From the NCBI GenBank assembly GCA_040768005.1, contig JAXGNL010000004.1, positions 18,153 through 82,152 of the forward strand: 64,000 bases of DNA. The letters are read 5' to 3'. This document shows, one piece after another, positions 2,793 to 55,640 of the stretch. The notes under the pieces are model-generated. The model searched no databases. It was not told the DNA's origin and was given only the letters and a program-made list of their open reading frames with translations. Each line of letters opens with the position of its first letter. Within the stretch, counting starts at the first letter, position 1. The position numbers were made by a program, and so were the translations under genes. The stretch is from Kiritimatiellia bacterium. GTDB taxonomy: Bacteria > Verrucomicrobiota > Kiritimatiellia > CAIQIC01 > Lenti-01.

Positions 2793-3587
2793 ATGATGCG
2801 TCCCGACCATTTGAAAATCTCCGCCTGCGTCACCGCCGGCAACGAGGAGGACAAGATCGCCGCCTGTCTCGCCAGCCTGTCCTGGTGCGATGAAACCATT
2901 GTCGTGGACTCCTTCAGCCGGGACAAAACCTTCGAAATCTCCAAACAGTACACCCCCCACGTCTATCAGCACGCCTGGGAAGGCTACATCGCCCAGAAAA
3001 ACTACATCCGCTCCCTCGCCCACTATCCCTGGATCCTGTTCGTGGACGCCGACGAAGTGGTCTCCAAGGCCCTGCGCGACGAAATCGAGACCGAATTCCA
3101 GCGCGGCCCCGGCGACGTGGCCGGCTACAGCTTCCCCCGCATGGTCCATTATCTCGGCAAATGGATCCGCCACGGCGAATGGTACCCCGACATCAAACTG
3201 CGCCTGTTCCGGAAGGACCGCGGCCATTCCGAAGGCCAGGAACCCCACGACCGCGTCGTCGTGGACGGCCCCGTCAAAACCCTCCGCGCCCCCCTCTACC
3301 ACTTCACCTACGACAACCTCGCCGACCACATCCATACCATCAACCGGTTCTCCTCCATCACCGCCAACGAGAAATACCACCGCGGCGACGTCTTCCGCTG
3401 GCGCGATCTGTTCTTCCGCCCCCCCTTCCGCTTCTTCAAGTCCTACATCCTGAAAACCGGCCTCCTCGACGGCCGCCAGGGCTTCATCATCGCCGTCCTG
3501 TCCGCCTTCGGCGTCTTCGTCAAGTATGCCAAGCTCCTGGAACTCGGCATCCAGCACCGCCCCCCCGATCCCCGGCCCCATGACTGA
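2793..3587 (+). CDS. family-2 glycosyltransferase, LPS-core type (WaaE/KdtX-like)
   Basis: ORF 2760..3587. ATG 2793 gives MMRPDHLKISACVTAGNEED...VDSFSRD...FVDADE, the GT-A fold with a DxD-like DADE motif. Its stop overlaps the start of the next gene by 8 nt. Confidence 0.75.
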   Translation: MMRPDHLKISACVTAGNEEDKIAACLASLSWCDETIVVDSFSRDKTFEISKQYTPHVYQHAWEGYIAQKNYIRSLAHYPWILFVDADEVVSKALRDEIETEFQRGPGDVAGYSFPRMVHYLGKWIRHGEWYPDIKLRLFRKDRGHSEGQEPHDRVVVDGPVKTLRAPLYHFTYDNLADHIHTINRFSSITANEKYHRGDVFRWRDLFFRPPFRFFKSYILKTGLLDGRQGFIIAVLSAFGVFVKYAKLLELGIQHRPPDPRPHD

Positions 3588-5670
3588 ACCCGCCTGGCAG
3601 ACGCGCGGCCCCTGGCGCCTCCTCATCGCCTCCGGCCGGGACCGGCCCGGCTTCGATGAAACCCTCGCGCGCCTCCCGTTTCTCGTGGAAAAAGAGGCGG
3701 CCCCCCTCGTCCGCCCCGGCCGCCACCGCGTGGACCGCCTCCTGCTGTCCTGCGGCGACGCCACCATGGACGCCGTCGTCAAATCCTACGGCGCGCAGGC
3801 CGCCTGGCGCGACCGCCTCGCCCTGCGGCACGGCTCCAAGGCCGAACGCGCCTTCCGCACCGCCCTCGCCCTCCGCGACGCCGGCGTCGGCACCCCCGCC
3901 CCCATCGCCGTCGTCGAACGCTGGGAAGGCCCCCGCCTCCGCGACAGCCGCCTCGTCTCCGCCTTCGTCCCCCGCCTGACCAGCTTCCGCGACGAACTCG
4001 ATCGCCTCTATGCCGAAGCTCCCCGCTGCACCCCCCTCATGGACCTGCTCCAGGCCGTCGCCGGCGCCGTCCGGGCCCTGCACGATGCCGGCATCCTCCA
4101 CCGCGACCTCGGCAACCAGAACATCGCCCTTCAGCGCGACCCCGATCAGCCCGGCGCCCCCTGGAACGTCCTGTTTCTCGACCTCAACCGCGCCCGCCAG
4201 ATCCCCGCCCCCACCCCCGCCCAGCGCGGCGCCGATCTCGCCCGCCTCGACCTGCCCTCGGATTTCCGCCGCGTCTTCCACGCCATGTACCACCACGGCC
4301 ATTCCCCGCCGCCCGAGTTCGCCGACGCCGAACAACGCGCCCGCGCCGCCTTCGACCGCCATACCGCCCTGCGCCCCCTCCGCCATCCCCTGCGCGAAGC
4401 CCGCCTCCGCCGCCAGAACGCCGGCGTCACCCCCCCCCTGCGCGGACGCGACATCTGGATCTGGGACGACCGCTCCGCCCAGGCCATCCCCGCCTATGCC
4501 CCCCGCGACCGCCGGCGCCTCCTGCCCGCCGCCAACGTCACCGCCGCCCTGCGCGGCATCGCCCGTACCGGCCTCGCCATCCGCCGCCGCCACCGCGACC
4601 TTCTCCGGCAGAGCTTCCAGGCCCCCGTGCCGTTCGACGGCGCCATCGGCATGACCCTCGACGCCGAACCCGCCGCCTGGTCCCGCCAGCTCGCCTTTCT
4701 CGATCAGCTGCAGGGCGAACAGAAACTCCCCCTCCTCCTCCGCCTCTATCATCACCAGAATCCCGAGGCCTGGCACTGGACCCTCGACCAGGCCCTGAAC
4801 CTCCACCGCCGCGGGCATTCCGTCGCCCTTGCCCTCGTCCAGGACCGCCGCGCCATCCGCGAACCCAAAGGCTGGCGCCAGATGGTCACCCTCGCCTTCG
4901 ACCGCGCCCACACCTTCGCCGACTTCTTCGAAATCGGCCACGCCGTCAACCGCTCCAAATGGGGCATCTGGGATTTCCGCGACTACGCCCGCCTGCTCGA
5001 CCCCGTCCGGTCCAGCCTCATCCAGTATCCCGACGCCCGGATCACCGGGCCCGCCTGCATCGATTTCGAACCCCACGCCCTCGCCGCCCTGCTCGAGATC
5101 CTTCCCCCGGACATCCGCTTCCACGCCCTCTCCCACCACCTTTACGTGGACCGCCGCGGCGCCCCCGAAAACCGCCAGGGCCCTCACGACACCGTCTCCA
5201 AATGCGCCCTCCTGCGCGCCTTCGCACGCGTCCATTCCTTCACCGACGACCGGCCCCTCATCACCGAAGTCAACTGGCCCCTCGCCGGCACCGGCCCCTG
5301 GTCCCCCGTCACCTCCCCCTACGAAACCCTCGCCCCCCGCCAAAACGATCCCTCCGTCAGCGAAGACACCTACGCCGCCTACATGGCCCGCTACCTCCTG
5401 CTGACCATCGCCTCCGGCCACATCGCCCGGGTCTACTGGTGGCGCCTCGCCGCCCGCGGCTTCGGACTCGTGGACGACACCGATCCCGCCGCCTGGCGCC
5501 CCCGCCCCGCCTTCACCGCCCTGCAAACCATGCTCCGCCAACTCCGCGGCGCCGCCTTCTCGCGCAAACCCGAAACCCCTCCCGGCGAAGTCGCCCTCGA
5601 ATTCACCCGCCCCGACGGGTCCCCCCTCACCGCCCGCTGGACCCTCGACACCCCCCCCGTGTGGGACTGA
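3580..5670 (+). CDS. two-domain protein: N-terminal lipopolysaccharide kinase (Kdo/WaaP/InaA family) domain fused to a C-terminal clan GH-A-like TIM-barrel domain
   Basis: ATG 3580 (MTEPAWQ...) lies inside ORF 3526..5670. N-terminal ~300 aa carry kinase-like HRDLGNQNIAL ... LFLDLNRA motifs. C-terminal ~390 aa carry glycoside-hydrolase-like strands (FFEIGHAVN, PLITEVNWP). It is a single uninterrupted frame of 696 aa. Confidence 0.6.
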   Translation: MTEPAWQTRGPWRLLIASGRDRPGFDETLARLPFLVEKEAAPLVRPGRHRVDRLLLSCGDATMDAVVKSYGAQAAWRDRLALRHGSKAERAFRTALALRDAGVGTPAPIAVVERWEGPRLRDSRLVSAFVPRLTSFRDELDRLYAEAPRCTPLMDLLQAVAGAVRALHDAGILHRDLGNQNIALQRDPDQPGAPWNVLFLDLNRARQIPAPTPAQRGADLARLDLPSDFRRVFHAMYHHGHSPPPEFADAEQRARAAFDRHTALRPLRHPLREARLRRQNAGVTPPLRGRDIWIWDDRSAQAIPAYAPRDRRRLLPAANVTAALRGIARTGLAIRRRHRDLLRQSFQAPVPFDGAIGMTLDAEPAAWSRQLAFLDQLQGEQKLPLLLRLYHHQNPEAWHWTLDQALNLHRRGHSVALALVQDRRAIREPKGWRQMVTLAFDRAHTFADFFEIGHAVNRSKWGIWDFRDYARLLDPVRSSLIQYPDARITGPACIDFEPHALAALLEILPPDIRFHALSHHLYVDRRGAPENRQGPHDTVSKCALLRAFARVHSFTDDRPLITEVNWPLAGTGPWSPVTSPYETLAPRQNDPSVSEDTYAAYMARYLLLTIASGHIARVYWWRLAARGFGLVDDTDPAAWRPRPAFTALQTMLRQLRGAAFSRKPETPPGEVALEFTRPDGSPLTARWTLDTPPVWD

Positions 5671-6523: not shown

Positions 6524-6590
6524 GCCGCCTGCCCCGGTTCCCCGCGACCTTGTGCGGCCGGCCCCAGACCCCCGCGCCCTCGCGCCGGGA

Positions 6591-6662
6591 TTTTCCACGC
6601 CATGGAAAACTGTTCCGCCGGTTTTCCACGCCATGGAAAAGATTTTTCCACACCGTGGAAAA
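6591..6662. promoter_or_regulatory. array of three 19-bp palindromic sites TTTTCCAC-N3-GTGGAAAA upstream of the hemolysin-III gene
   Basis: ttttccacgccatggaaaa at 6591-6609 and again at 6622-6640, and ttttccacaccgtggaaaa at 6644-6662. Centre-to-centre spacings are 31 and 22 bp. The array lies between the hndD 3' end and the hlyIII start, 68-140 bp upstream of the hlyIII ATG. Confidence 0.6.
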
Positions 6663-6698
6663 TCCGGAAAATGCCGATCCCTGTCACGATCCCGGCTC

Positions 6699-44293: not shown

Positions 44294-46519
44294 TCATTCC
44301 ACGGCGATTCGCACGCGGTCGCTGAGCCCGCGGGCGCTGGCGCAGACGATCTGATGGTTGCCGGGTTCCAGCGGCCAGAACAGGGATTCGCCGGGGCGGG
44401 AGCGTCCCACGGGGCGGTCGTTGACGAACCAGTGCAGCGTCTCGCCGGGGGTCTGCGAGGCGGCCTGCAGCGCCAGGCGCTGGCGCAGGGTGTCGTCGCC
44501 GGGCAGGCGCCGGTACACGCTGTCACCGGCGGGCGACAGGATCCGCAGATCCGCCGTCGGCGACTCCGCAGGCGCGGCCGCCCGGCGTGGAAACGGCGCG
44601 GCCGTGGCCACCGGCAAGCCGCTGTCGCCGGTCTCGTGCGGCAGCGGACAGGGATCGAAGCGCGAGACCCGGGCGATGCTCCAGTCCGAGGCCCGGTGCG
44701 GACACGACGCTCCGGGCGCGCAGCCGCTCTCCCGGCAGACCGTTCGCGGCACGACATCCGCGGGCCGCGCGAAAGCCGGCCCCTCGTTGTCCGGATACAG
44801 CCGCCGGAACACATCCCACGCGATGGGCGTCGCCGCCAGCCGCCCCACCAGCTCGTCGGACCCGGATCCATCCGGATTGCCGACCCAGACCCCCACCACC
44901 ACCTCGGGATTCCACGCGACGGTCCAGGCGTCGCGCAGCCCGGCCGACGTCCCGGTCTTCCAGGCCACCGGCGGCAGGCGGACATCCGCCGCATGGCCCG
45001 TGGCATCCAGCGCCCGCTCCTCGCCCGACAGGATGTCGGCCACCAGCCAGCAGGCGGCCGGCGAAAACACCGGCGTTCCGTTCAGGGGCGCCGCGTCCTC
45101 CACGAACCGCACCGGCGCCCACTCCCCCCCCCGCGCCAGGCAGGCGTAGGCATTCGCCAGATCCAGCAGCCGGACCTCGGCCCCGCCCAGCACCAGCCCC
45201 AGCCCGTAGTGGTCCGGCGAACGCTCCAGCGTGCCGAACCCCAGCTGCCGCAGCACCGCATGAAACCGCTCCGGCCCGACGCGCCGCACCAGGTCGATCG
45301 CCGGCAGGTTCAGCGAAGTGACCAGCGCCTCGCGCGCCGTGACCCTTCCGCGAAAATCCCGCGAAAAATTCTGCGGCACGAAATCCCGGAATTTCATGGG
45401 AACGTCCTGGAGCATCGTGGCGGGCGTGGCGAGCCCCCGGTCGAACGCCAGCGCATAGGCGAACGGCTTGAGGGTGGACCCCGCGGCGCGCGGCGCGAGG
45501 GCGCCGTTCACCTGTCCGGCGCGGGGATCCCGGTAATCCGGCGATCCCACCAGCGCGCGGATGCCGCCGGTGGCCACGTCGAGCACCACAACGGCTCCGC
45601 CGGCGGCCGTCCGCTCCGCCAGGTGCCGCCGCAGAATGCCCTCGGCCGTCCGCTGCCAGCCCGCATCCAGCGTCGTCCGGACCGCCCCGCCGCCGTCCGG
45701 CGCCGCCGGCACCCCGACCTGCTCGCAAAAATGCGGCGCGCGGAACGGATACCGCCCCGCCCGCACCGTCAGCGGCTGCGCCCAGGCCGCCGCGCGTTCC
45801 GCCGGCGTGATCTCCCCGCACGCTTCCATCCGGTCCAGCACATAGGCCTGGCGTTCCTTCGCCCGCTCGAAATGACGGTCCGGGCGCAGCCGCGACGGCG
45901 ATTGCGGCAGGCCGGCCAGCAAGGCCGCCTCGGCCAGGCTGAGCTGCGCCGCCCCCTTTCCGAAATAGCGACGAGCGGCCGCCTCGATGCCGACGAGGTT
46001 GCCCCCGAACGGCGCCCGGTCCAGGTAGTGCGCCAGGATCTCGCGCTTGGTGCGGCGCCGTTCCAGCTGCAGCGCCCGGAAGGCCTCCACCGCCTTGGTC
46101 CAGAGCGTCCGCCGCCGCGGTTCCGTCATCCGGATGACCTGCGTCGAAAGGGTCGAAGCGCCCGACACCCGGCGCCCGAACCAGAGGTTCTGGCCGACGG
46201 CCCGCGCCAGCGCCAGCGGATCGATTCCGCCGTGCGTCCAGAAGCGCTGGTCCTCGGCCGCCACGATGGCCCGCGCGATCCAGTGCTCCGGTTCGGGCCG
46301 GTAGCCGGGGCGGCAATCCATGTCGCCCGTGCCCAGCCGCACCCGCAGCGGTTCCCCGTGCCGGTCCGCCAGCACGACGGCGATCGGCAGCCGGTCCAGC
46401 GCCGCGTCGGGAAACGGAACCCAGCGAACCGCGGCCCAGAACATACCGATTGATATCGTGCAGGCCAATAGAGGTAGGGCGAGGCGTCCCCGCCGAGCCG
46501 GGCTGTTCGAGCGGCTCAC
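44294..46519 (-). CDS. pbpC: penicillin-binding protein 1C (PbpC), glycosyltransferase + transpeptidase
   Basis: GT51 motifs (EDQRFWTHGGID, GASTLSTQ, RKxxE) and transpeptidase motifs STLKP, SRN-like and KTGT. Start uncertain. I chose an in-frame GTG preceding the single TM helix LALPLLACTISIGMFWAAV. The first ATG is at 46444. Confidence 0.8.
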   Translation of the reverse strand: MSRSNSPARRGRLALPLLACTISIGMFWAAVRWVPFPDAALDRLPIAVVLADRHGEPLRVRLGTGDMDCRPGYRPEPEHWIARAIVAAEDQRFWTHGGIDPLALARAVGQNLWFGRRVSGASTLSTQVIRMTEPRRRTLWTKAVEAFRALQLERRRTKREILAHYLDRAPFGGNLVGIEAAARRYFGKGAAQLSLAEAALLAGLPQSPSRLRPDRHFERAKERQAYVLDRMEACGEITPAERAAAWAQPLTVRAGRYPFRAPHFCEQVGVPAAPDGGGAVRTTLDAGWQRTAEGILRRHLAERTAAGGAVVVLDVATGGIRALVGSPDYRDPRAGQVNGALAPRAAGSTLKPFAYALAFDRGLATPATMLQDVPMKFRDFVPQNFSRDFRGRVTAREALVTSLNLPAIDLVRRVGPERFHAVLRQLGFGTLERSPDHYGLGLVLGGAEVRLLDLANAYACLARGGEWAPVRFVEDAAPLNGTPVFSPAACWLVADILSGEERALDATGHAADVRLPPVAWKTGTSAGLRDAWTVAWNPEVVVGVWVGNPDGSGSDELVGRLAATPIAWDVFRRLYPDNEGPAFARPADVVPRTVCRESGCAPGASCPHRASDWSIARVSRFDPCPLPHETGDSGLPVATAAPFPRRAAAPAESPTADLRILSPAGDSVYRRLPGDDTLRQRLALQAASQTPGETLHWFVNDRPVGRSRPGESLFWPLEPGNHQIVCASARGLSDRVRIAVE

Positions 46520-46572
46520 CCGGAGGGTTCGCCCTACCCGAAATCCGCGATCCCGATTGGTCCCTTTCTCCC

Positions 46573-49500
46573 TCACGGCCGGACCACGAGCTCCCCGCCC
46601 TCGCCCGCGCCGCGGAACTCCGGCTCGTACATGCCCGCCACCGTCGGCGGCGGCAGCACGAACGTTCCCGGGGTCACCGCCCGCACGGCGTAGTGGAAGG
46701 CGGTTTCCTCGCCCGGGATCGGTCCGGTGAAGATCAGCATCCGGTCGTCGCGCGCCTCGCGGTGCCGGTCGCCTTCGCCTTTCTTCTTCTTTTCCAGCCA
46801 CGGCACGAGCTGGGCCGTGGCCAGGTTGGCGTTTTCAATTTCGAGGCCCGCCGGCAGCAGGTCTTCGATCACCAGCTGATCCAGGCGGTTGCCCTGCGGA
46901 TCGACCGTCAGCCGCGCCACCAGCAGGTCGCCCTGCCGGACGGCATCCGGTTCAATCGGATTCCCGTTCAGGTCCAGCCACTCGCGCCGGATGGCCACGC
47001 CCTGGCTGGAAGCCGGTTCGGGCTCCGCGGGAACGCCTTCGTACCGGACGCACAGATAGGCCTTGCCCGGCCCGTCGTTGCGGATCTCCACCCCGCCGCC
47101 CCCGCCCGGCGCGGTGGACCACGACACGTCGTTGGTGGCGGCGAATTCCCGCACCGTTCCGTCCGGCAGACGGACGGAGCCGGCCAGGGGCTGTTCTTCG
47201 TCCGGCAGGCGCCGCGCCAGCTTGCCGAACGCCAGCAGCGCCAGCGCGTTGTCCTGCGTATTGCCCCAATGGCCGTCGCGCTGCAGATCGCGCAGCCGCT
47301 GGGCCAGCGCCGGCACCGCCGCGTGGTCCGGATCGATTTCCAGCCACGCCGACAGCAGCAAGGCGGCATCGCGGACTTCGCTGTCCAGCAGGCGGCCCGG
47401 CACGCGGGCGCGGGGCGCCGGCATGGGCAGGGCCTCCATCAGGGCCACGGCCTGGCGCGGCTCGCCGGCGTGCAGCAGCGCCGCCGCCGTGTGAACCCGG
47501 GCCGCATAGTCCAGCCGCCCGGACTGTTCGGCCAGGCGCGCCGCCCAGCCCGCATCCGGGTGTCCGGCCAGCGCCAGGATCTGGCAGGCATAGGCCCGCC
47601 GGCCCATTTCGATCCGCCAGTCTTTCTCTTCGAGATCCGGCGAAACGGCCTTCTCCAGCCGGTTCCGCAGCCAGTCGAGGCCGGCCTTCAGATGCGTCTC
47701 CGGCACGGGGAATCCCGCCGCCTGCGCCTCCACGAGGAAATGCAGCGCATAGAGGGTCTCGGGATCGGACACGCCGCGCTGGAAAGGCCAGAGGGCAAAC
47801 CCTCCGCCTTCCTGCTGCATGGACAGCACCCGCGCCACGGCCGCCGCCGTCAGGCCCTCGACGTCGCCCAGCGCGCGGTCCGAAGGCAGCAGGCGATGGA
47901 TCCAGTCCTGGGCCCGCAGCAGCGGAAACGCCCCGGACACCGTCTGTTCGAGACAGCCGTAGGGATAATGCACCACGTAGTCCAGCGCGCGGCCGAGCTG
48001 GGCCGACGGCAGGGACGACAGCGTGCCCGACATCGCCAGCGAAGCCGGCAGCCAGCCGGCCGGCGGCTCCAGCCGGACGGTTTCGCCCGGCGCCACGACC
48101 TTCATCACGGTCTCCACCCGCGTGCCCGCGGCCGGCCGCACCGCGAGCTCGATGGATTCGCGATAGGTCTCGGTTCCGGCCTCGACCTCCAGATGGAACA
48201 CGGCCTTGCCCGGACCGGGCCCCGCCTCGAGATCAAAGACGGCCTGCGCGGACCCGCCGGCCGGAAGTTCGACGGTCTGGTCGGGCGGATCGGCCCGCAA
48301 CGGCCCGCCGCAGGAGACACGGATCCGGGCCTCGACCGGCTGGCCGGTTCCGTTGTGCAGCGCCGCCCCGCCCTGCGCCCGGTCGCCGATGGCCAGGAAC
48401 CGCGGCAGGGCGGGCTGCACCACCACGTCGCGCTTCACCGTCACAGGCCGGTCCTCCGATCCCGTCCGGGTGTCGTCCCAGGCCACCGCCATCAGCCGCA
48501 GCTCGCCGGTGAATTCCGGCACCTCCAGGCGGAACCCGGCCTGCCCGTTTTCGTCGAGCGGCAGCGCCGCCGCCCACAGCGCCACCGGCTTGAAACGGTC
48601 GGCCTTGATGGGATTCAGCCGGCGCCGCAGCGCCGCGCCCATGCCGCCGCCGGGAGCCGGCGTCCCCTCGAGCCGCTCTTCGGTGATCGGCATCAGTTCG
48701 CTGTAGAGATCGTATCCGCTCACGGCCAGCCCCCGCCGCGCGGTGAAGACCGTCAGGGGATCCGGCGTCTCGTAGTCCGTCAGCAGGCAGATGGCTTCGT
48801 CCACCGCCAGGACCGTCACCCGGCCGCGGGCGGGCTGTCCGGTTTCGTCGCGGACGCTCACCGTGCCGGCCAGGGGCGTTTTCGGCCGGATGCGTTCCGG
48901 GGCCGCCAGCTCCACCTGCATGCGGCGGTCCGGCCGTTCCACCGGCAGCGCGAGGGTTCCGATGGCCCGGTGCGCGTTCCATACCGCCTCCGCCTGCGCC
49001 GGGCGGATCACCGACAGCGTGCACCACGCGTTCGGGGCCAGCTCTTCGTCCACCGCAATCTCCAGCTCCGCGGTGTTTCCGGCCAGCTCCACCACCCGGG
49101 TCTCATGGATGCGGTCGGTCTCGATCGTGAGCAGCGCCGGCCCGGCAAACGGCGCGCGCACCTGCAGGCGGGCCGTGTCGCCGGGACGGTAGCGCTCGCG
49201 GTCCCACGCCAGCTCCACCCGCCCCGGTTTTTCCCGGCTCCACGCCGCCCAGGACGGATCCGACGACGCCGCCCAGAACTCGATGCGCGCGGCCGTCCCG
49301 GATTCCGGATCGGCGGCCGCCAGCGTGTACACGCCCGGCGACGGCACGGCAAAGGCCCAGTCCGCCGGTACGCCGCCCGCGGCCAGGGTGTCCTGCCGCA
49401 CCTCGACCACCTGGCGCTCGGATGTCCATTCGTAGCGCCCTTCGCGGTTGCGGCGCAGCACGGAGTTCCAGGTCACCCGCGACAGCGTCAGGATCAGCGG

Positions 49501-51987
49501 CTTGCCCTCCGCCACCGGTTCGCCGTCCGGCCGCACTTCCGCCACCGCCACGCGCTGGGTTTCGCCCGCGCGGACCGCCCCCTCCCAGCCCGGCCTCAGG
49601 CCGACATAGAACGGATACGGGTCGATCTGCGCCGCGCCGTAGGCCGTCACGGAACGCCCGCTGGTCTCCATCACCGTGGCGCCCAGCACCACCTGCAGCG
49701 CCGCGGGGGGCCGCCACGCCTTGCGCGTGTCCACCATGAATTCCCCCCGCCCGTCCGCATCCAGCGCTCCCGCGCCGATCGGCTTGTGGATCGGCGCGAA
49801 ATCCTTCTCGCCGTCCCCGAAGTGCCAGCCCTTCCAGTTCTCCGGCGCAAACGGCGCGGGCGTGAAAGTCGCCGTCGCCGTCGTTTTCAGCCCGGCGGCG
49901 GGCCGCCCGAACAGGTGATCGCCCCGGACGCCGAAGCGCAGCACGTCGCCGGCGGGACGCCGCTCCGGCGGCGCCTCCACGTCCACGCGGATCTGCGGCG
50001 GCACGAAATCCTCCAGGGCCGCCGTCGTGCGCCCCAGGACCGTATGGGTGCCCGGCATCGCCAGTTCGAAGGCGTAGCGCCCCGTCGGCAGGAATTCCGG
50101 CAGCCGGATTTCGCCGTGCGCCGCCCCGGTCTCGTCCAGCTCCAGCGGCACATCGCGGTACACCCGGCCGTCCGGCCGTTTCACCCGCAGCAGCACCGGG
50201 AACGGCTCCGGCGCCCGCATCCGGTCGTCCCGGGCGATGGCCTGGACAAAGACCGTTTCCCCGGGCCGGTAGATGCCGCGTTCGGTGAACACCGCCGCCT
50301 CGACCTCGCCCGGCTGCAGATAGGCCGCGCCGCCGGTGTCGCCGCTGTTCACTCCCGTGGCCTCCAGATCCAGATACGTCAGGTCGCCGCCGGCTTCGGC
50401 CACCACCACGAACGGATGCGCGTCGTTCGGAAGCACCGCCAGGACCTTGCCCTGTTCATCCGTGACGCCCCGCGCCAGCACCTGGTTGTTGCGCGCATAG
50501 ACCGTCACGGCGGCATTCGTGACGGGCGTCGCGCCGGACAGCGAGTTGACCCACGCCAGCAGCCCGCCGCGGAACGACCGGACGGCCAGCCCGAGATCCG
50601 TCACCACCAGCAGCCGCGAATCGCCCGCCGCGTCCGGAGCGCCCACCTCGAGCCAGTACACCCCGCGCGGCTCCCCGGCCGTCAAATGCCGCAGCTCCAC
50701 CATGCCCCGCACCGGCCCCCCGTCGGCCGACGGCGCCAGGAAATTCGTCACGACCGGCGCATCGCCCGTCAGGTCGTCCACCGTCCCGCCCCAACAGCGG
50801 GATGATCCGGATTCGCGCTGCGCCAGCTGGATCAGGTTGTTGGCATACACCCGCCTCAGCTGCGCCGTGAAGCGCTCCACATTCGCGCCGGCCACCGGCA
50901 CCGCCAGCGCGCCCCCGGGCGCCAGGTACCGCCCCGGCACATCCACCTTCACCGCCTTCTTGCGCGGGGGCACGTGCACCGTCCGTGCAAGGTCCTTCGG
51001 CAGGCTGGAGCCGTTCGCCGCCGGCAGCCCCTCCTTGAACGTCACTTGATAAATCTCCCCCGGATGGAAATCGCCCCGCAGCCGGAATCCCTCCTTCCAC
51101 CACCTGCCGATCGGCTCCACCGTGAACGCCGTCTGCGGCTCCACGGCCACAAACTCCTTCACCTCGTTGAGTTCGGGCGCCACGTTGAACTCCACTTCCA
51201 GAACCGGCGCGTCGAAGGACGGGCTGTCGACCTCGACCGACCGCAGCAGCATGTTCATGTCCATCGTGAGCGTCCCGCGCTCCTCGCGGTCCGCGGGAAG
51301 GGCCTCGCCGGTCGAGGGCATGCCCGCTTGCAGCACGTACTCCATTTTCTCGGTCAGGACCGGATCGGTTTCGATCAGCAGGGCCTCGCCGCCCATGGCC
51401 TCCATCAACCGGTAGTCCAGGGGGCCTTCGCCGACGGCATGCAACCGGAGAAAGCGGGTCAGTTTCGTCCGGTCCGGCTCGGCGCTGAACATCAGCCGCA
51501 GGATCAGGCGGCGCTCCGGCGACACATCCACCTGCTCCACCTTGCGCAGGCGCAGCACCCGTTCGCCCTTCGGCGCGGCCTGTTCCGTCGCGGGCGGTCC
51601 CGATTCGATCGCCTCCCGCCGCGACAGGTAATCCGTCCAGCGCCAGACGCCGTAGGTGTTCACCAGCAGGAATGCGACAGCCAGCGCGAACCAGCGCGCC
51701 CCGCCGCGGCGGGCCGCCGCCGCCCCGGCCCCCGGCGCCGCGCCGTCCGTCGGGTCCGCGGCCGCCTCGGCGAACGTTTCCGGCGGATCCATCTCCGCCA
51801 GGATGCGGTCCATCGCCTCCGTCTCCGCCTCGCCCCGTTCCGCGGCCCGGCGCCTCGCCTCGGCGATATGGTCGCGCAGCCCCGCGGTCACCTCCCGGCG
51901 CACCGCCTCCGGCTTGTGCGCCAGCTGCCGCTCCACCTCGCGCAGATATGCCTCCGCCCGCCGTTCCGCTTCGCCTCGATTCTTCAT
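46573..51987 (-). CDS. bacterial alpha-2-macroglobulin (YfhM-like) with N-terminal HAAS (DUF1700-like) cytoplasmic domain and single TM anchor
   Basis: ATG 51987 overlaps the PadR stop (ATGA). Residues 1-80 are MKNRGEAERRAEAYLREVERQLAHKPEAVRREVTAGLRDHIAEARRRAAERGEAETEAMDRILAEMDPPETFAEAAA, followed by a TM helix WFALAVAFLLVNTYGVWRW. A ~1700-aa periplasmic A2M then follows with MG domains and thioester-domain-like blocks. 1804 aa. Confidence 0.85.
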   Translation of the reverse strand: MKNRGEAERRAEAYLREVERQLAHKPEAVRREVTAGLRDHIAEARRRAAERGEAETEAMDRILAEMDPPETFAEAAADPTDGAAPGAGAAAARRGGARWFALAVAFLLVNTYGVWRWTDYLSRREAIESGPPATEQAAPKGERVLRLRKVEQVDVSPERRLILRLMFSAEPDRTKLTRFLRLHAVGEGPLDYRLMEAMGGEALLIETDPVLTEKMEYVLQAGMPSTGEALPADREERGTLTMDMNMLLRSVEVDSPSFDAPVLEVEFNVAPELNEVKEFVAVEPQTAFTVEPIGRWWKEGFRLRGDFHPGEIYQVTFKEGLPAANGSSLPKDLARTVHVPPRKKAVKVDVPGRYLAPGGALAVPVAGANVERFTAQLRRVYANNLIQLAQRESGSSRCWGGTVDDLTGDAPVVTNFLAPSADGGPVRGMVELRHLTAGEPRGVYWLEVGAPDAAGDSRLLVVTDLGLAVRSFRGGLLAWVNSLSGATPVTNAAVTVYARNNQVLARGVTDEQGKVLAVLPNDAHPFVVVAEAGGDLTYLDLEATGVNSGDTGGAAYLQPGEVEAAVFTERGIYRPGETVFVQAIARDDRMRAPEPFPVLLRVKRPDGRVYRDVPLELDETGAAHGEIRLPEFLPTGRYAFELAMPGTHTVLGRTTAALEDFVPPQIRVDVEAPPERRPAGDVLRFGVRGDHLFGRPAAGLKTTATATFTPAPFAPENWKGWHFGDGEKDFAPIHKPIGAGALDADGRGEFMVDTRKAWRPPAALQVVLGATVMETSGRSVTAYGAAQIDPYPFYVGLRPGWEGAVRAGETQRVAVAEVRPDGEPVAEGKPLILTLSRVTWNSVLRRNREGRYEWTSERQVVEVRQDTLAAGGVPADWAFAVPSPGVYTLAAADPESGTAARIEFWAASSDPSWAAWSREKPGRVELAWDRERYRPGDTARLQVRAPFAGPALLTIETDRIHETRVVELAGNTAELEIAVDEELAPNAWCTLSVIRPAQAEAVWNAHRAIGTLALPVERPDRRMQVELAAPERIRPKTPLAGTVSVRDETGQPARGRVTVLAVDEAICLLTDYETPDPLTVFTARRGLAVSGYDLYSELMPITEERLEGTPAPGGGMGAALRRRLNPIKADRFKPVALWAAALPLDENGQAGFRLEVPEFTGELRLMAVAWDDTRTGSEDRPVTVKRDVVVQPALPRFLAIGDRAQGGAALHNGTGQPVEARIRVSCGGPLRADPPDQTVELPAGGSAQAVFDLEAGPGPGKAVFHLEVEAGTETYRESIELAVRPAAGTRVETVMKVVAPGETVRLEPPAGWLPASLAMSGTLSSLPSAQLGRALDYVVHYPYGCLEQTVSGAFPLLRAQDWIHRLLPSDRALGDVEGLTAAAVARVLSMQQEGGGFALWPFQRGVSDPETLYALHFLVEAQAAGFPVPETHLKAGLDWLRNRLEKAVSPDLEEKDWRIEMGRRAYACQILALAGHPDAGWAARLAEQSGRLDYAARVHTAAALLHAGEPRQAVALMEALPMPAPRARVPGRLLDSEVRDAALLLSAWLEIDPDHAAVPALAQRLRDLQRDGHWGNTQDNALALLAFGKLARRLPDEEQPLAGSVRLPDGTVREFAATNDVSWSTAPGGGGGVEIRNDGPGKAYLCVRYEGVPAEPEPASSQGVAIRREWLDLNGNPIEPDAVRQGDLLVARLTVDPQGNRLDQLVIEDLLPAGLEIENANLATAQLVPWLEKKKKGEGDRHREARDDRMLIFTGPIPGEETAFHYAVRAVTPGTFVLPPPTVAGMYEPEFRGAGEGGELVVRP

Positions 51988-52325
51988 CTTCCGGGTTCCT
52001 TCCCCTGCTTCAACTGCTCCATCGCCTCCACCAGCACCGGCCAATAGGCATTCATCTCCGCCAGCCGCACCTTGCCCCGCAGCGTCAGCGAGAAATACCG
52101 CCGCGGCGGCCCCGCGTCCGACGGCTTGTCGCGCGACTTCAGGCACCCCTCCGCCCGCAGCCGCCCCAGGATCGGATATACCGTGCTCTCCGACACCGAC
52201 AGATCCTCGATCCGCTTCAGCGCCTGCACGATCTCATAGCCGTAGCTCTCCCCCCGCCGCAGCACCAGCAGCACGCAGTACTCCAGCAGCCCCTTGCGCA
52301 GCTGCGTGATCCAGCCCTCGATCAT
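51984..52325 (-). CDS. PadR-family transcriptional regulator
   Basis: LRKGLLEYCVLLVLRRGESYGYEIVQALKR ... VSESTVYPILGRLRAEGCL ... RRYFSLTLRG, a canonical PadR winged helix. 113 aa. Confidence 0.85.
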   Translation of the reverse strand: MIEGWITQLRKGLLEYCVLLVLRRGESYGYEIVQALKRIEDLSVSESTVYPILGRLRAEGCLKSRDKPSDAGPPRRYFSLTLRGKVRLAEMNAYWPVLVEAMEQLKQGKEPGR

Positions 52326-52518
52326 GACCTACTCCGCATCATGTATTACGCAATACATAATACCGGGCCGGCTGTCAAGGGCGTTCCGTCCCGCGGCATC
52401 CGCCTGAATCCGGATCCCTCGCCGCCGGCTTAATGCATTTTTAATATCCCCTTGTCTTCCGGTCCGGCGGATGCTATTGGAACCTCATGGCCCACTGGCT
52501 GTTCGAAAGGAATGACAC

Positions 52519-53655
52519 ATGAAAGCCGGCATTGCCTTCAGCGACCATTCCGACCCTTCCCGGGCAGGCCGGGAAGCGGCGTCCCGGGCCGTGGCCCTCT
52601 CCGGCCCCCCCCGGCTGGCCATTCTCTTCACGACCGACGCCTACCCGCCCCCGCCCGTGCTGGAAGCCGTCCGTCTCGAAATCGGAGACGCCAAACTGGT
52701 CGGATTCTGCTGCGGCGGGATTCTGGCCGATGACGCCTGGCATCCGCAGGGCGTCGGCATCTGCACCCTGGGCGGCGACTTCCAGGTCCGCACCACCCTT
52801 CAACGCGGACTGGACCGCGACCCGTTTGAAACCGGGTGCCGCACGGCCGACGCGCTGCTGGCGAACGGGGTCGCCGAAGGCACGGTCATGGTCCTGCCGG
52901 ACGGCTTCGAGGCCAATCTCTCCGAACTCCTGCGCGGGCTCTACACCCGGTGCGGCGCGGACTTCCAGTATGTGGGCGGCGGCGCCGGCGACAACCTGAA
53001 GTTCTTCAAAACCCACCAGTTCACCGAACAGGGCTGCGCCAGCCGCGCCGTGGCCGCCGCCGTCATCCAGGGCCTGAATCTCGTCACGCGCATCGGCCAC
53101 GGCTGGGTGCCCATGGGCGATCCCCTCGTCATGACCCGCACCCGGGGCAAAATCGTTCATGAAATCGACGGCATGCCCGCCTTCGCGGCCTATCAGCAGC
53201 ATCTCGGCCCGATCTCCCGGGAGGAGTTCAGGACCCGCGGCATGCTGCACCCCCTGGGCTTTCCCGACGTGTTCGGACGCTACACCATCCGCGACCCCCT
53301 GGCCGTGGAAGACGGCGACAGCATCCGGTTCGTCAACGAGGTGCCCTCCCAGGCCGTCGGCAACATCATGGACGGCAACATCAACCAGCTCATCGACACC
53401 GCCGGCAAGACCGTGCGCGAAGCCGTCAGCGCCGTCCCCGATGCGGCTTTCCTGCTGCTGTTCGACTGCATCTCCCGCGCCACGCTCATGGGCGACCGGT
53501 TCCGGGAGGAACTGCGCGCCATCCGCAAGGCCGCCGGCCCCCGCCTCCCGATCCTGGGCGCCCTCACCTTCGGCGAAATCGGCGCGGCCGGCGACGTGCC
53601 GCAGCTCCACAACAAAACCACCGTCGCCGTCGCCGGAGGACCCCTCCCGGCATGA
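52519..53655 (+). CDS. FIST-domain sensor protein (FIST_N + FIST_C)
   Basis: 378 aa. FIST-type blocks (LAILFTTDAYP ... GFCCGGIL ... YVGGGAGDN ... LTFGEIG). ATGA-coupled to the downstream kinase. Confidence 0.7.
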   Translation: MKAGIAFSDHSDPSRAGREAASRAVALSGPPRLAILFTTDAYPPPPVLEAVRLEIGDAKLVGFCCGGILADDAWHPQGVGICTLGGDFQVRTTLQRGLDRDPFETGCRTADALLANGVAEGTVMVLPDGFEANLSELLRGLYTRCGADFQYVGGGAGDNLKFFKTHQFTEQGCASRAVAAAVIQGLNLVTRIGHGWVPMGDPLVMTRTRGKIVHEIDGMPAFAAYQQHLGPISREEFRTRGMLHPLGFPDVFGRYTIRDPLAVEDGDSIRFVNEVPSQAVGNIMDGNINQLIDTAGKTVREAVSAVPDAAFLLLFDCISRATLMGDRFREELRAIRKAAGPRLPILGALTFGEIGAAGDVPQLHNKTTVAVAGGPLPA

Positions 53656-55640
53656 TCTTCGGCAGGTCAGCCTCGCCCCCGCGTTCCCGCAAGGCCCCCG
53701 ATTACGCCATCGTCGCCGAACTCTCCGCCCTGCATGAGCTGTCCGCCCTCGCGCTGGTCTCCGGCGAGGAACAGCTCGCCAGCGAAACCGCCGAGAAAAT
53801 CACCCGCCTCTTCGGCACCCGGCGCTTCGCCATCCTCACCGGGCTGCCCCCCCGCCAGCGCGTCGTGGTGGCCTCCGGTTTCAAGGCCGGCGAATCCCCC
53901 GCGGCCGCCCTGCCCCGGTCCCGCAACGATCCCCACCGCCTGGTGCTGGTGTTCAACGAAGGCAAGGAGGAACAGGACACCCTGTTCTTCGAGCAGGCCC
54001 AGCCCCTGGACAAGCGCCTGCGCCGCCTCTACAACGTCCTCTCCAGCCGCATCGAAGAACGCCTGGCCTTCTTCCGCCACGAGGCGCAGCGCGCGCGCAT
54101 GGAACGGGACCTGCGGGAAAGCGAAGCCCGCAACCGCGCGATTCTCGACGCCATCCCCGATCTGATGTTCGTGTATGACCGCGACGGCACCTATCTCGAC
54201 TACCACGCCGCCAAAGCCGCCCTGCTGGCCGTCTCCCCCGATCAGTTCCTCGGCCGCAACATCCGCGACGTCCTGCCCCCGGACGCGGCCGAACGTCTCC
54301 TGAACGGCTTCCGCCTCGCCCTGGAATCCGGCCGCCCGCAACGCGTGGAATATGCTCTCGACCTGGCCGGCGAAGTCCGCGCCTTCGAAGCCCGGATCTG
54401 TCCCCTCGACGACCACCGCCTCCTGGTCATGGCCCGCGACATCACCGATCTCAAGCAGGCCGAAGCCGACCGGGACACCTTGCAGGACAAGCTCGCCCAG
54501 GTCCGGAAAATGGAATCCATCGGCCGGCTCGCCGGCGGCGTCGCCCACGACTTCAACAACATGCTCTGCGCCATCCTCGGCCATGCCGAGCTGGCCCTGA
54601 ATGTCCCCGGCTCCCCCGACCCCGTCCGGGACCATCTCGACGAAATCCGACAGGCCGGCGAACGCTCCGCCGATCTCACCCGCCAGCTGCTGGCCTTCGC
54701 CCGCAAGCAAACCGTCTCTCCCCGGCGGCTCGATCTCAACCAGGCCGTCGAAGGCATGCTCAACATGCTCCGCCGTCTCATCGGCGAATCCATCCGGCTG
54801 GACTGGCAGCCCGGCCCCGATGCCGGCCAGGTCCGGATCGATCCCTCCCAGCTGGATCAGATCCTGGCCAACCTGTGCCTCAACGCCCGGGACGCCATCG
54901 GCGACTCCGGCACCATCCGGATCGATACCGCGGTCGTCTCCCTCGATGCCGCCGCCACGCCCGCCCTCGAAGGCGCCGCCCCCGGCGAGTATGCCTGCCT
55001 GACCGTCCGCGACGACGGCACCGGCATGGACCGCGACACCCTCGCCCGCATTTTCGAGCCGTTCTTCACCACCAAGGAAATCGGCAAGGGCACCGGTCTC
55101 GGCCTGGCCACCGTGTACGGCGCCGTCCGGCAGAACAACGGGTTCATCCGGGTGGACAGCGCACCGGGCCGGGGCAGCGCCTTCCAGGTGTTTCTGCCCC
55201 GCCTCGCCCCCGGGCCCGGCGAAGAGAAAACGCCCCCCGCGCCCCCGCCGCCGCCCGCCGCCGCCGGCCACCAAACCGTTCTGGTCGTCGAAGACGACCC
55301 GGCCATCCTCCAGATCACCGCCAGGCAGCTGGAATCCATCGGCTATGCCGTGCTGGCCGCCGATTCAACCGAATCCGGACTGCGCCTGGCGCAAACGCAC
55401 GACGGCCCGATCGCCCTGCTCATGACCGACGTGGTCATGCCCGGCATGAACGGCTTTGAACTCGCCAAGGCCGTCCGGACCGTGCTCCCGAACCTGCCGT
55501 GCCTGTACATGTCCGGCTATACCCCCGCCGACATCCCCGATCCGGTCGCCTCCGCCTGCCCGGGACCCATCCTTCAGAAGCCCTTCTCCCGCGACACACT
55601 GGCAAACGCCGTGCGGCAGGCGTTGATGCAACCCGCCTGA
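53652..55640 (+). CDS. hybrid sensor histidine kinase (PAS - HisKA - HATPase_c - receiver)
   Basis: PAS region (RNRAILDAIPDLMFVYDRDGTYLDYH). H-box GGVAHDFNNML. N and G boxes (NLCLNARDAI ... GTGMDRDTLARIFEPFFTTKEIGKGTGLGL). Receiver domain VLVVEDDP ... LMTDVVMPGMNG. Confidence 0.85.
   Translation: MIFGRSASPPRSRKAPDYAIVAELSALHELSALALVSGEEQLASETAEKITRLFGTRRFAILTGLPPRQRVVVASGFKAGESPAAALPRSRNDPHRLVLVFNEGKEEQDTLFFEQAQPLDKRLRRLYNVLSSRIEERLAFFRHEAQRARMERDLRESEARNRAILDAIPDLMFVYDRDGTYLDYHAAKAALLAVSPDQFLGRNIRDVLPPDAAERLLNGFRLALESGRPQRVEYALDLAGEVRAFEARICPLDDHRLLVMARDITDLKQAEADRDTLQDKLAQVRKMESIGRLAGGVAHDFNNMLCAILGHAELALNVPGSPDPVRDHLDEIRQAGERSADLTRQLLAFARKQTVSPRRLDLNQAVEGMLNMLRRLIGESIRLDWQPGPDAGQVRIDPSQLDQILANLCLNARDAIGDSGTIRIDTAVVSLDAAATPALEGAAPGEYACLTVRDDGTGMDRDTLARIFEPFFTTKEIGKGTGLGLATVYGAVRQNNGFIRVDSAPGRGSAFQVFLPRLAPGPGEEKTPPAPPPPPAAAGHQTVLVVEDDPAILQITARQLESIGYAVLAADSTESGLRLAQTHDGPIALLMTDVVMPGMNGFELAKAVRTVLPNLPCLYMSGYTPADIPDPVASACPGPILQKPFSRDTLANAVRQALMQPA

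Follow-up and report, generated by a model that had tools for sequence, protein, structure and literature searches.

The role proposed for bacterial alpha-2-macroglobulins (A2Ms) is to protect the periplasm once the outer membrane has been breached, and the pairing of an A2M with PbpC, its peptidoglycan-repair partner, is well known as a periplasmic trap-and-repair module. An A2M is a single-use inhibitor, in that the change of shape it undergoes on cleavage of its bait region is irreversible. We know of no account of how cells match the supply of such a consumable protein to demand, nor of any transcriptional circuit that is built into a bacterial A2M. Here we analyse a stretch of 64,000 nucleotides from a Kiritimatiellia bacterium (NCBI GenBank assembly GCA_040768005.1, contig JAXGNL010000004.1, positions 18,153 to 82,152 of the forward strand; the whole stretch is called the window below, and positions are counted from its first letter), in which a gene for an A2M with an N-terminal HAAS domain lies between padR, encoding a PadR-family transcriptional regulator, and pbpC. 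As we will argue below, the protease trap encoded in this cassette probably controls its own operon.

Soluble repressors that are inactivated by capture at a membrane protein reporting an external condition are familiar from the Mlc/PtsG pair of E. coli. Among the described systems closest to the present one is the HAAS–PadR pair. It was proposed computationally in 2024 (Ravi et al., mSystems) as an alternative to two-component signalling, with HAAS passing on to PadR the state of the membrane sensors to which it is fused (PMC11237479). The published HAAS domain has three consecutive helices, the third of them kinked at a conserved proline motif (GxP), and the partners named for it are PspC, LiaI-LiaF-TM, Toastrack, permeases of the FtsX/MacB type, FtsW/RodA and VanZ, along with uncharacterised multi-transmembrane domains and pentapeptide repeats (PMC11237479); A2M is absent from both the text and the text supplement of that paper. 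In Listeria monocytogenes, the LltR-Lmo0600-Lmo0601 and LstR operons encode a PadR-type repressor first and a DUF1700/HAAS membrane protein after it, and autorepression of these operons has been shown by promoter fusions and RNA-seq, with inducers that are still unknown (PMC6624303).

The cassette in the window consists of padR, the HAAS–transmembrane–A2M gene (a2m) and pbpC, arranged head to tail on the minus strand over ~8.1 kb in a region with a G+C content of 67-73% (Table 1). A first-pass annotation, made from the sequence alone, had identified the upstream reading frame as a PadR regulator whose stop overlaps the A2M start, and had placed pbpC immediately downstream. All three assignments are borne out: the product of the upstream frame scores 71.3 bits against the Pfam PadR model (cut-off 27), the TGA of padR and the ATG of a2m share an ATGA (junction sequence ...GGAAGATGAAGAAT...), and the downstream product is a PBP1C equivalog by its NCBIfam score (Table 1) that also matches Pfam Transgly, Transpeptidase and BiPBP_C. 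The A2M stop shares a GTGA (46573-46576) with a GTG at 46576 in the pbpC frame, the mirror of the padR/a2m junction. Judging from the sequence, this GTG is the probable start of pbpC; a second possible start is the GTG at 46519. Gene calls at four related loci (L003, L005, L034 and L035) likewise begin the next gene 4 nt over the A2M stop, that gene being pbpC in L003, L005 and L035 and not identified in L034. Because the overlap occurs both in the window and in these four loci, padR, a2m and pbpC are probably all translationally coupled. On the evidence presented below, we regard it as rather probable that the three genes form an envelope-defence cassette, made as one translationally coupled unit, in which feedback from spent A2M reaches the operon by way of HAAS and PadR.

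Table 1. Coordinates of the cassette and of its parts, in positions of the window
Feature	Position	Strand	Description
Conserved non-coding footprint upstream of padR	52326..52379	-	from alignment A4
Operator-like 18-bp imperfect palindrome, ATGTATTGCGTAATACAT	52341..52358	-	8/9 mirrored pairs
padR	51984..52325	-	113 aa; PadR-family winged-helix regulator, short type
ATGA overlap of padR stop and A2M start	51984..51987	-	read directly in the sequence
A2M open reading frame	46573-51987	-	ATG 51987 to TGA 46573, no interruption, 1804 aa
HAAS domain	51763..51951	-	A2M residues 13-75; whole helical N-domain, residues 2-76
Flexible Ala/Gly/Pro-rich linker	51700..51759	-	A2M residues ~77-96
Single predicted transmembrane helix, RWFALAVAFLLVNTYGVWRW	51631..51699	-	A2M residues ~97-119
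A2M body, predicted to be periplasmic	46573..51630	-	A2M residues ~120-1804: linker and undefined N-terminal domain, YfhM-like from ~302
Bait-region domain	48781..49215	-	A2M residues 925-1069; Pfam A2M_BRD 66.3 bits, cut-off 22.7
Thioester motif CLEQ	47944..47955	-	A2M residues 1345-1348, context YPYGCLEQT
pbpC (penicillin-binding protein 1C)	44294..46576	-	from the probable start; NCBIfam TIGR02073 (PBP_1c) 609 bits, cut-off 494

At its N-terminus, the A2M matches the Pfam HAAS model (PF22564) over residues 13-75, with 32.8 bits for the whole protein and 38.6 bits for residues 1-110 alone (cut-off 27), and each of 17 diverse orthologous N-termini matches HAAS as well at E <= 0.01 (best E = 3.7e-10). 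AlphaFold2, run for the N-terminal region on this 17-sequence alignment, predicts HAAS helices at residues 2-21, 27-51, 55-65 and 70-76 with a pLDDT of ~90. The break between the last two falls at the motif MD[P/A]PE, whose residues M66, D67, P69 and E70 are, together with Y14, R30 and L37, invariant among aligned orthologous N-termini that are 33-60% identical. The linker that follows (residues 78-93 predicted to be disordered, pLDDT < 50) measures 12-39 residues in 77 orthologs, with a median of 21 and a composition of 32% A, 15% G and 9% P. It leads into one long predicted helix at residues 97-128, which contains the only hydrophobic segment of the N-terminal region, that is, the transmembrane helix. 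Since no hydrophobic segment precedes residue 96, the N-terminus being charged and helical, and since no cysteine occurs before residue 398, a cleavable signal peptide and a lipobox are both absent from the protein. These results agree with the first-pass annotation, which had read the N-terminus as a HAAS-like segment followed by one transmembrane helix and had denied it a lipoprotein signal. A single membrane helix is consistent with a cytoplasmic HAAS domain and a periplasmic A2M body, and we infer that the protein is anchored in the inner membrane by an N-in/C-out helix instead of by lipid.

The membrane helix is itself unusually conserved, with the motif WFxLxxAFLLVNxYGVWxW at residues 99-117 (window 51637-51693), in which N110 never varies and W99, F106 and W115 hardly do. 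Conservation of this kind suggests that the helix has a role beyond anchoring, for example in self-association or in contact with the membrane anchor of PbpC, and the invariant Asn110 could serve helix–helix association.

Behind the helix, seven Pfam domains score above their cut-offs (bMG3, MG2, bMG5, bMG6, A2M_BRD, A2M and bMG10), and residues 302-1804 align to the structures of E. coli YfhM and Salmonella A2M (5a42, 4ziq and 4u48) with E = 3.5e-110. The Pfam TED model reaches 12.6 bits, under its cut-off; the thioester motif itself is intact (Table 1). By these sequence features, the A2M is a thioester protease trap of the YfhM/ECAM type. Between the helix and the region of YfhM homology lie ~170 residues (residues ~130-300, window ~51088-51600) with no Pfam match, and longer orthologs of ~1895 aa hold an extra segment after the membrane helix that gives faint Big_5 matches.

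The same architecture recurs widely in one group of bacteria. An identical protein is held at NCBI under the name "MG2 domain-containing protein [Kiritimatiellia bacterium]", and some 70 orthologs share 41-68% identity with it, equal length and the same N-terminus. An exhaustive HMMER search with the 17-sequence N-terminal alignment against 1.84 billion cluster representatives retrieved 1503 of them at E <= 0.001. Among the best 150 of these, 18 exceed 1000 aa; the 16 long representatives that were tested, and also P0063 and P0076 (both annotated as A2Ms), all run on into an A2M core. At 50% identity, the fusions of HAAS, transmembrane helix and A2M fall into 18 clusters or more, and every one of these comes from uncultured genomes of the PVC group. 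The thioester signature CxEQ is found in 15/15 full-length HAAS-A2M representatives tested and is absent from a 1028-aa partial sequence; the bait-region domain is likewise retained in the clade. When one genome of each GTDB species was scanned with narrow patterns derived from four closer sequences, at least 24 loci were found (the narrowness of the patterns makes this count a lower bound, and cultured isolates may have escaped it), all in metagenome-assembled genomes that their submitters labelled Kiritimatiellia, Verrucomicrobiota, Lentisphaerae or Spartobacteria.

This distribution bears on whether the fusion exists at all. The fusion could be imitated by a start codon called in the wrong place, by a chimeric contig or by a chance profile match on a charged, helical N-terminus of low complexity; this N-terminus has many Glu, Arg and Ala residues, its whole-protein HAAS score lies only 6 bits over the cut-off, and all of the data come from metagenome-assembled genomes. 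We nevertheless give an artefact almost no credence: the uninterrupted open reading frame of ~1800 aa is found on dozens of independent contigs, whose samples and sources differ, and both the unbroken series of HAAS matches among the orthologous N-termini and the size of the family retrieved with the N-terminal profile speak against a chance match. The HAAS match was in fact already present in the precomputed Pfam annotation of these proteins. The first-pass annotation knew of no description of such an A2M architecture, and this holds for the literature that we searched, which yielded no relevant paper on macroglobulin together with PadR, PbpC, HAAS or Kiritimatiella. PadR, HAAS, thioester A2Ms of the YfhM type and PbpC are each familiar on their own; as far as we can tell, their combination in a HAAS-A2M fusion has been latent in the databases and is undescribed.

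If the HAAS tail of the A2M is functionally tied to PadR, then the two should be distributed together, and across loci they are. As evaluable we counted distinct loci with sequence upstream of the A2M start (n = 28), using called genes where these were present. In all 28 of the evaluable HAAS-A2M loci, the gene next upstream of a2m, with the same orientation, is padR, and this includes the deepest branches (P0146, P0149 and P0129). The ATGA overlap is identical in 20 of the 28 loci, and the other eight junctions fall between -17 and +11 nt. The first-pass annotation had pointed to a survey of related genomes as one way to learn whether orthologous A2Ms have a HAAS N-terminus and a neighbouring PadR; the HAAS-bearing orthologs proved to have padR without exception. 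Conversely, three membrane-anchored relatives without HAAS (P0080, P0082 and P0083; 32-41% identity, with ~12 residues before the helix) keep the membrane helix, the A2M body and, where the contig allows, pbpC, and padR is absent upstream of all three. As the intergenic gaps at these loci are only 108-294 nt long, a missed HAAS exon is not the explanation. A neighbour-joining tree of the A2M core places the three as basal or sister to the HAAS-bearing clade, which suggests a joint gain or a joint loss of HAAS and padR. Labels on this tree were taken from the profile search, and seven sequences that carry HAAS by that search are not labelled HAAS by the motif MD.PE.

Where HAAS occurs, padR thus occurs with it, and where the one is missing so is the other, although the remainder of the module stays in place. 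The gene downstream is pbpC in every evaluable orthologous locus except L006/L007, so that the link between PadR and HAAS is at least as tight as the classical link between A2M and PbpC. Comparison of the sequences gives good support to a coupling of PadR to the cytoplasmic HAAS tail of the A2M. A natural fusion of PadR to HAAS was also considered, and its only candidate, P0216, was rejected because its contig is visibly frameshifted; the whole of locus L032 is similarly riddled with frameshifts, and in both cases PadR and HAAS seem to be one open reading frame in what looks like sequencing error.

The same comparison speaks to a simpler account of the locus, in which PadR is an ordinary ligand-responsive repressor, the HAAS-like segment is a mere cytoplasmic spacer or anchor, and the adjacency of the two genes reflects co-regulation. 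Classical PadR regulators do answer to small molecules, contact between HAAS and PadR has never been shown experimentally, and the fold search described below lends the HAAS domain no independent support. We consider this account improbable. It does not explain why HAAS and padR should appear in 28/28 loci and disappear in 3/3 together while A2M, helix and pbpC remain, and a spacer would have no need of invariant positions in the HAAS helices or of the MD[P/A]PE kink. The PadR protein, moreover, is of the short form; short PadR proteins are without the large C-terminal domain of the long type, and some short members do bind small molecules.

The best NCBIfam match of the PadR protein is TIGR03433 (padR_acidobact; 56.5 bits, under its cut-off), its closest solved structures are the short PadR-family regulators 5h20, 4esf and 3hhh, and its relatives in the PDB are 98-131 aa long; no other PadR or HAAS was found in the 64-kb window. 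An alignment of 18 orthologous padR upstream regions (alignment A4), drawn from loci that share 31-62% identity with the window in the N-terminal region of the A2M, reveals a conserved non-coding footprint. Its elements are, in order, a CTTGACA box (52373-52379), ~11 variable bases, GGTATTATGTATTGCGTAATACATGATGCGGAGTAG, three or four bases and the padR ATG, with the ribosome-binding site GGAG at 52332-52335, six bases ahead of the ATG. The footprint is near-identical in the 13 closest loci of the alignment, and the DNA further upstream is unrelated between loci. It contains an imperfect palindrome (Table 1) of which the heptamer GTAnTAC is invariant in 18/18 loci. The palindrome is seen once in the window, with 0 occurrences expected (100 shuffles, <=3 mismatches allowed).

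The CTTGACA box is tentatively taken, from its sequence, as part of the padR promoter. An operator for autoregulation could well be expected where the palindrome lies, with such a promoter-like box on one side and the ribosome-binding site of the gene for the repressor itself on the other, and the operator-like palindrome is our candidate for the site of PadR binding. In the deep-branching locus L035 (~3570-3657), which encodes a 2303-aa HAAS-A2M, two tandem 21-bp inverted repeats (CTACTCnGnATCGCGAGGTAG) directly upstream of padR stand in place of the single palindrome of the window clade. Taken together, the 28/28 co-occurrence, the absence of padR from the HAAS-less relatives (0/3) and the palindrome conserved in the closer relatives give strong comparative support to a functional link between PadR and the HAAS-A2M.

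By analogy with the 2024 HAAS–PadR proposal and with the PadR operons of Listeria, we propose the following scheme for how the cassette might work. A PadR dimer would bind the palindrome between the promoter-like box and the ribosome-binding site and thereby repress the operon, including padR itself. The HAAS tail of the A2M would bind PadR with a strength set by the state of the A2M outside the membrane. As A2M is spent on an invading protease, PadR would be captured, or otherwise inactivated, at the membrane, the change being carried by the shape, the clustering or the turnover of the A2M. De-repression would then lead to new trap, repair enzyme and repressor being made together, and the circuit would be reset. 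A feedback that senses consumption in this way makes physiological sense because each A2M molecule can be used only once.

Several observations weigh against this scheme, or against parts of it. A rigid conformational relay through the helix, of a piston or rotation type, is unlikely because the linker of 12-39 residues is of low complexity and predicted to be disordered. This limits the version put forward in the first-pass annotation, in which protease attack on the bait region could be transduced directly to transcription. A changed oligomeric state, clustering or turnover of reacted A2M would be a more plausible carrier, because it would change how avidly a pair of HAAS tails binds a dimer of PadR. 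Lys and Arg counts on the two sides of the helix (1.78 before vs 1.76 after) do not discriminate between topologies, and the conserved helix motif is not specific to signalling, since it occurs with its invariant Asn in HAAS-less relatives as well (P0080 and P0082). A Foldseek search of the AlphaFold2 N-terminal model against the PDB returned generic helical bundles only (E > 1), and a profile of the N-terminal alignment found nothing under E = 0.36 among PDB sequences and did not recover the DUF1048 structure 2O3L, which is cited in the 2024 HAAS–PadR paper; as these searches against solved structures gave nothing significant, the HAAS assignment is based on the match to the Pfam model and on the pattern of predicted helices. 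On the DNA side, a simple sigma-70 scan found no canonical promoter upstream of padR, and in deep-branching loci the operator sequence differs, its inverted-repeat character of the CTAC...GTAG type being kept. Finally, we know of no experiment and no model of a complex, in any system, for contact between HAAS and PadR.

What the A2M would report is a separate question. That protease attack is the signal we only infer; the specific proposal, that covalent capture of a protease by the A2M is reported through the HAAS tail to PadR, so that proteolytic attack on the envelope is sensed directly, strikes us as possible and somewhat on the doubtful side. The feedback could also be real with bait cleavage uninvolved: HAAS would then report the dosage or insertion of the A2M, or general envelope stress, by sensing either the amount of correctly inserted A2M (or of A2M together with PbpC) or a perturbation of the membrane or cell wall, to which other HAAS–PadR systems have been proposed to respond. 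The published HAAS partners PspC, LiaI-LiaF-TM, Toastrack, FtsX and FtsW/RodA are membrane-stress modules (PMC11237479), which fits such a role. A flexible linker is likewise better suited to tethering or titration than to conformational relay, translational coupling would yield PadR and HAAS-A2M in proportion, and with pbpC in the operon, cell-wall damage is an equally plausible cue. Against this, constitutive binding of HAAS to PadR at a one-to-one output would make the repressor pointless, so that a regulated step would still be needed, and the retention of the thioester motif and the bait domain across the clade points to the fused part being a working trap and hence an obvious candidate for the input. 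We rate a circuit of this kind, with dosage or stress as its cue, as unlikely, while granting it real weight.

Feedback from the spent trap would have consequences beyond this locus. HAAS–PadR is a widespread alternative to two-component signalling that is so far purely predicted (1503 cluster representatives by our N-terminal profile alone), and the fusion of HAAS to a protease trap offers an obvious stimulus that an experimenter can apply, with only one helix to be taken apart. If the trap does report on itself, this would explain how supply is matched to demand in this lineage, with the cell answering envelope proteolysis with more trap and more cell-wall repair enzyme. Sensing of proteases, if true, would give the HAAS–PadR systems their first defined input and the bacterial A2Ms their first known built-in regulatory circuit, with an A2M thioester protein acting as a signalling receptor. 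The cassette is compact and self-contained, and could therefore be rebuilt in E. coli although its hosts are uncultured.

Divergently from padR, the window encodes a FIST-domain protein (52519-53655, plus strand) and, overlapping the stop of that gene, a PAS-containing hybrid histidine kinase with a receiver domain (53652-55640, plus strand). We considered these two genes as part of the cassette and rejected them, as other loci have unrelated upstream neighbours; L010 alone, of those related loci in which the upstream genes were looked at, has upstream DNA in common with the window. In several related genomes a different repeated element occupies the intergenic DNA that immediately precedes padR or follows pbpC. 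This element forms tandem clusters of a 17-19 bp palindrome, TTTTCCAC-N4-TGGAAAA, of which the window holds three copies at 6588-6664; further clusters lie at 5513-5560 and 13700-13747 in L001, 11495-11564 in L010, 8454-8531 in L024, 11908-12029 in L025 and 8456-8565 in L031. From its sequence and placement, the element looks like a lineage-wide intergenic repeat of Kiritimatiellia, REP-like or terminator-like. GC skew is negative over the whole window (1-64000), is strongly so over 1-28 kb (-0.2 to -0.33) and weakens abruptly to ~-0.1 near 28 kb, for which gene strand bias or replication direction could be the cause.

Set beside the known systems, the cassette shares its outline with the published HAAS–PadR pair (PMC11237479): a standalone short padR lies directly upstream of a gene for a membrane protein with an N-terminal HAAS domain, predicted to be cytoplasmic, and the operon is apparently autoregulated. 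The predicted helix break at MD[P/A]PE fits the published description of a last HAAS helix kinked at a proline motif, and may correspond to the GxP given there. It departs from that pair in carrying, behind a single helix and a long disordered tether, a 1700-residue thioester protein predicted to be periplasmic. With the Listeria LltR and LstR operons (PMC6624303) it has in common a PadR-type repressor encoded first in an operon with a HAAS membrane protein; those operons, however, are Gram-positive, and their partner is a multi-spanning protein of unknown function or an FtsW/RodA homolog, whereas the protein fused to HAAS here has a known class of biochemical trigger, namely proteases. The resemblance to Mlc/PtsG is by analogy only and would lie in the sequestration of a repressor at the membrane; the protein families are unrelated, and we claim no homology. 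As for the trap itself, YfhM (ECAM) and the Salmonella A2M have the same MG array, bait-region domain, CLEQ motif, C-terminal MG10 and adjacent pbpC. These solved homologs are named lipoproteins by the depositors, whereas the A2M described here has no lipobox and appears to be anchored by its transmembrane helix, and to the familiar pairing with PbpC it adds a domain predicted to be cytoplasmic and a dedicated repressor gene.

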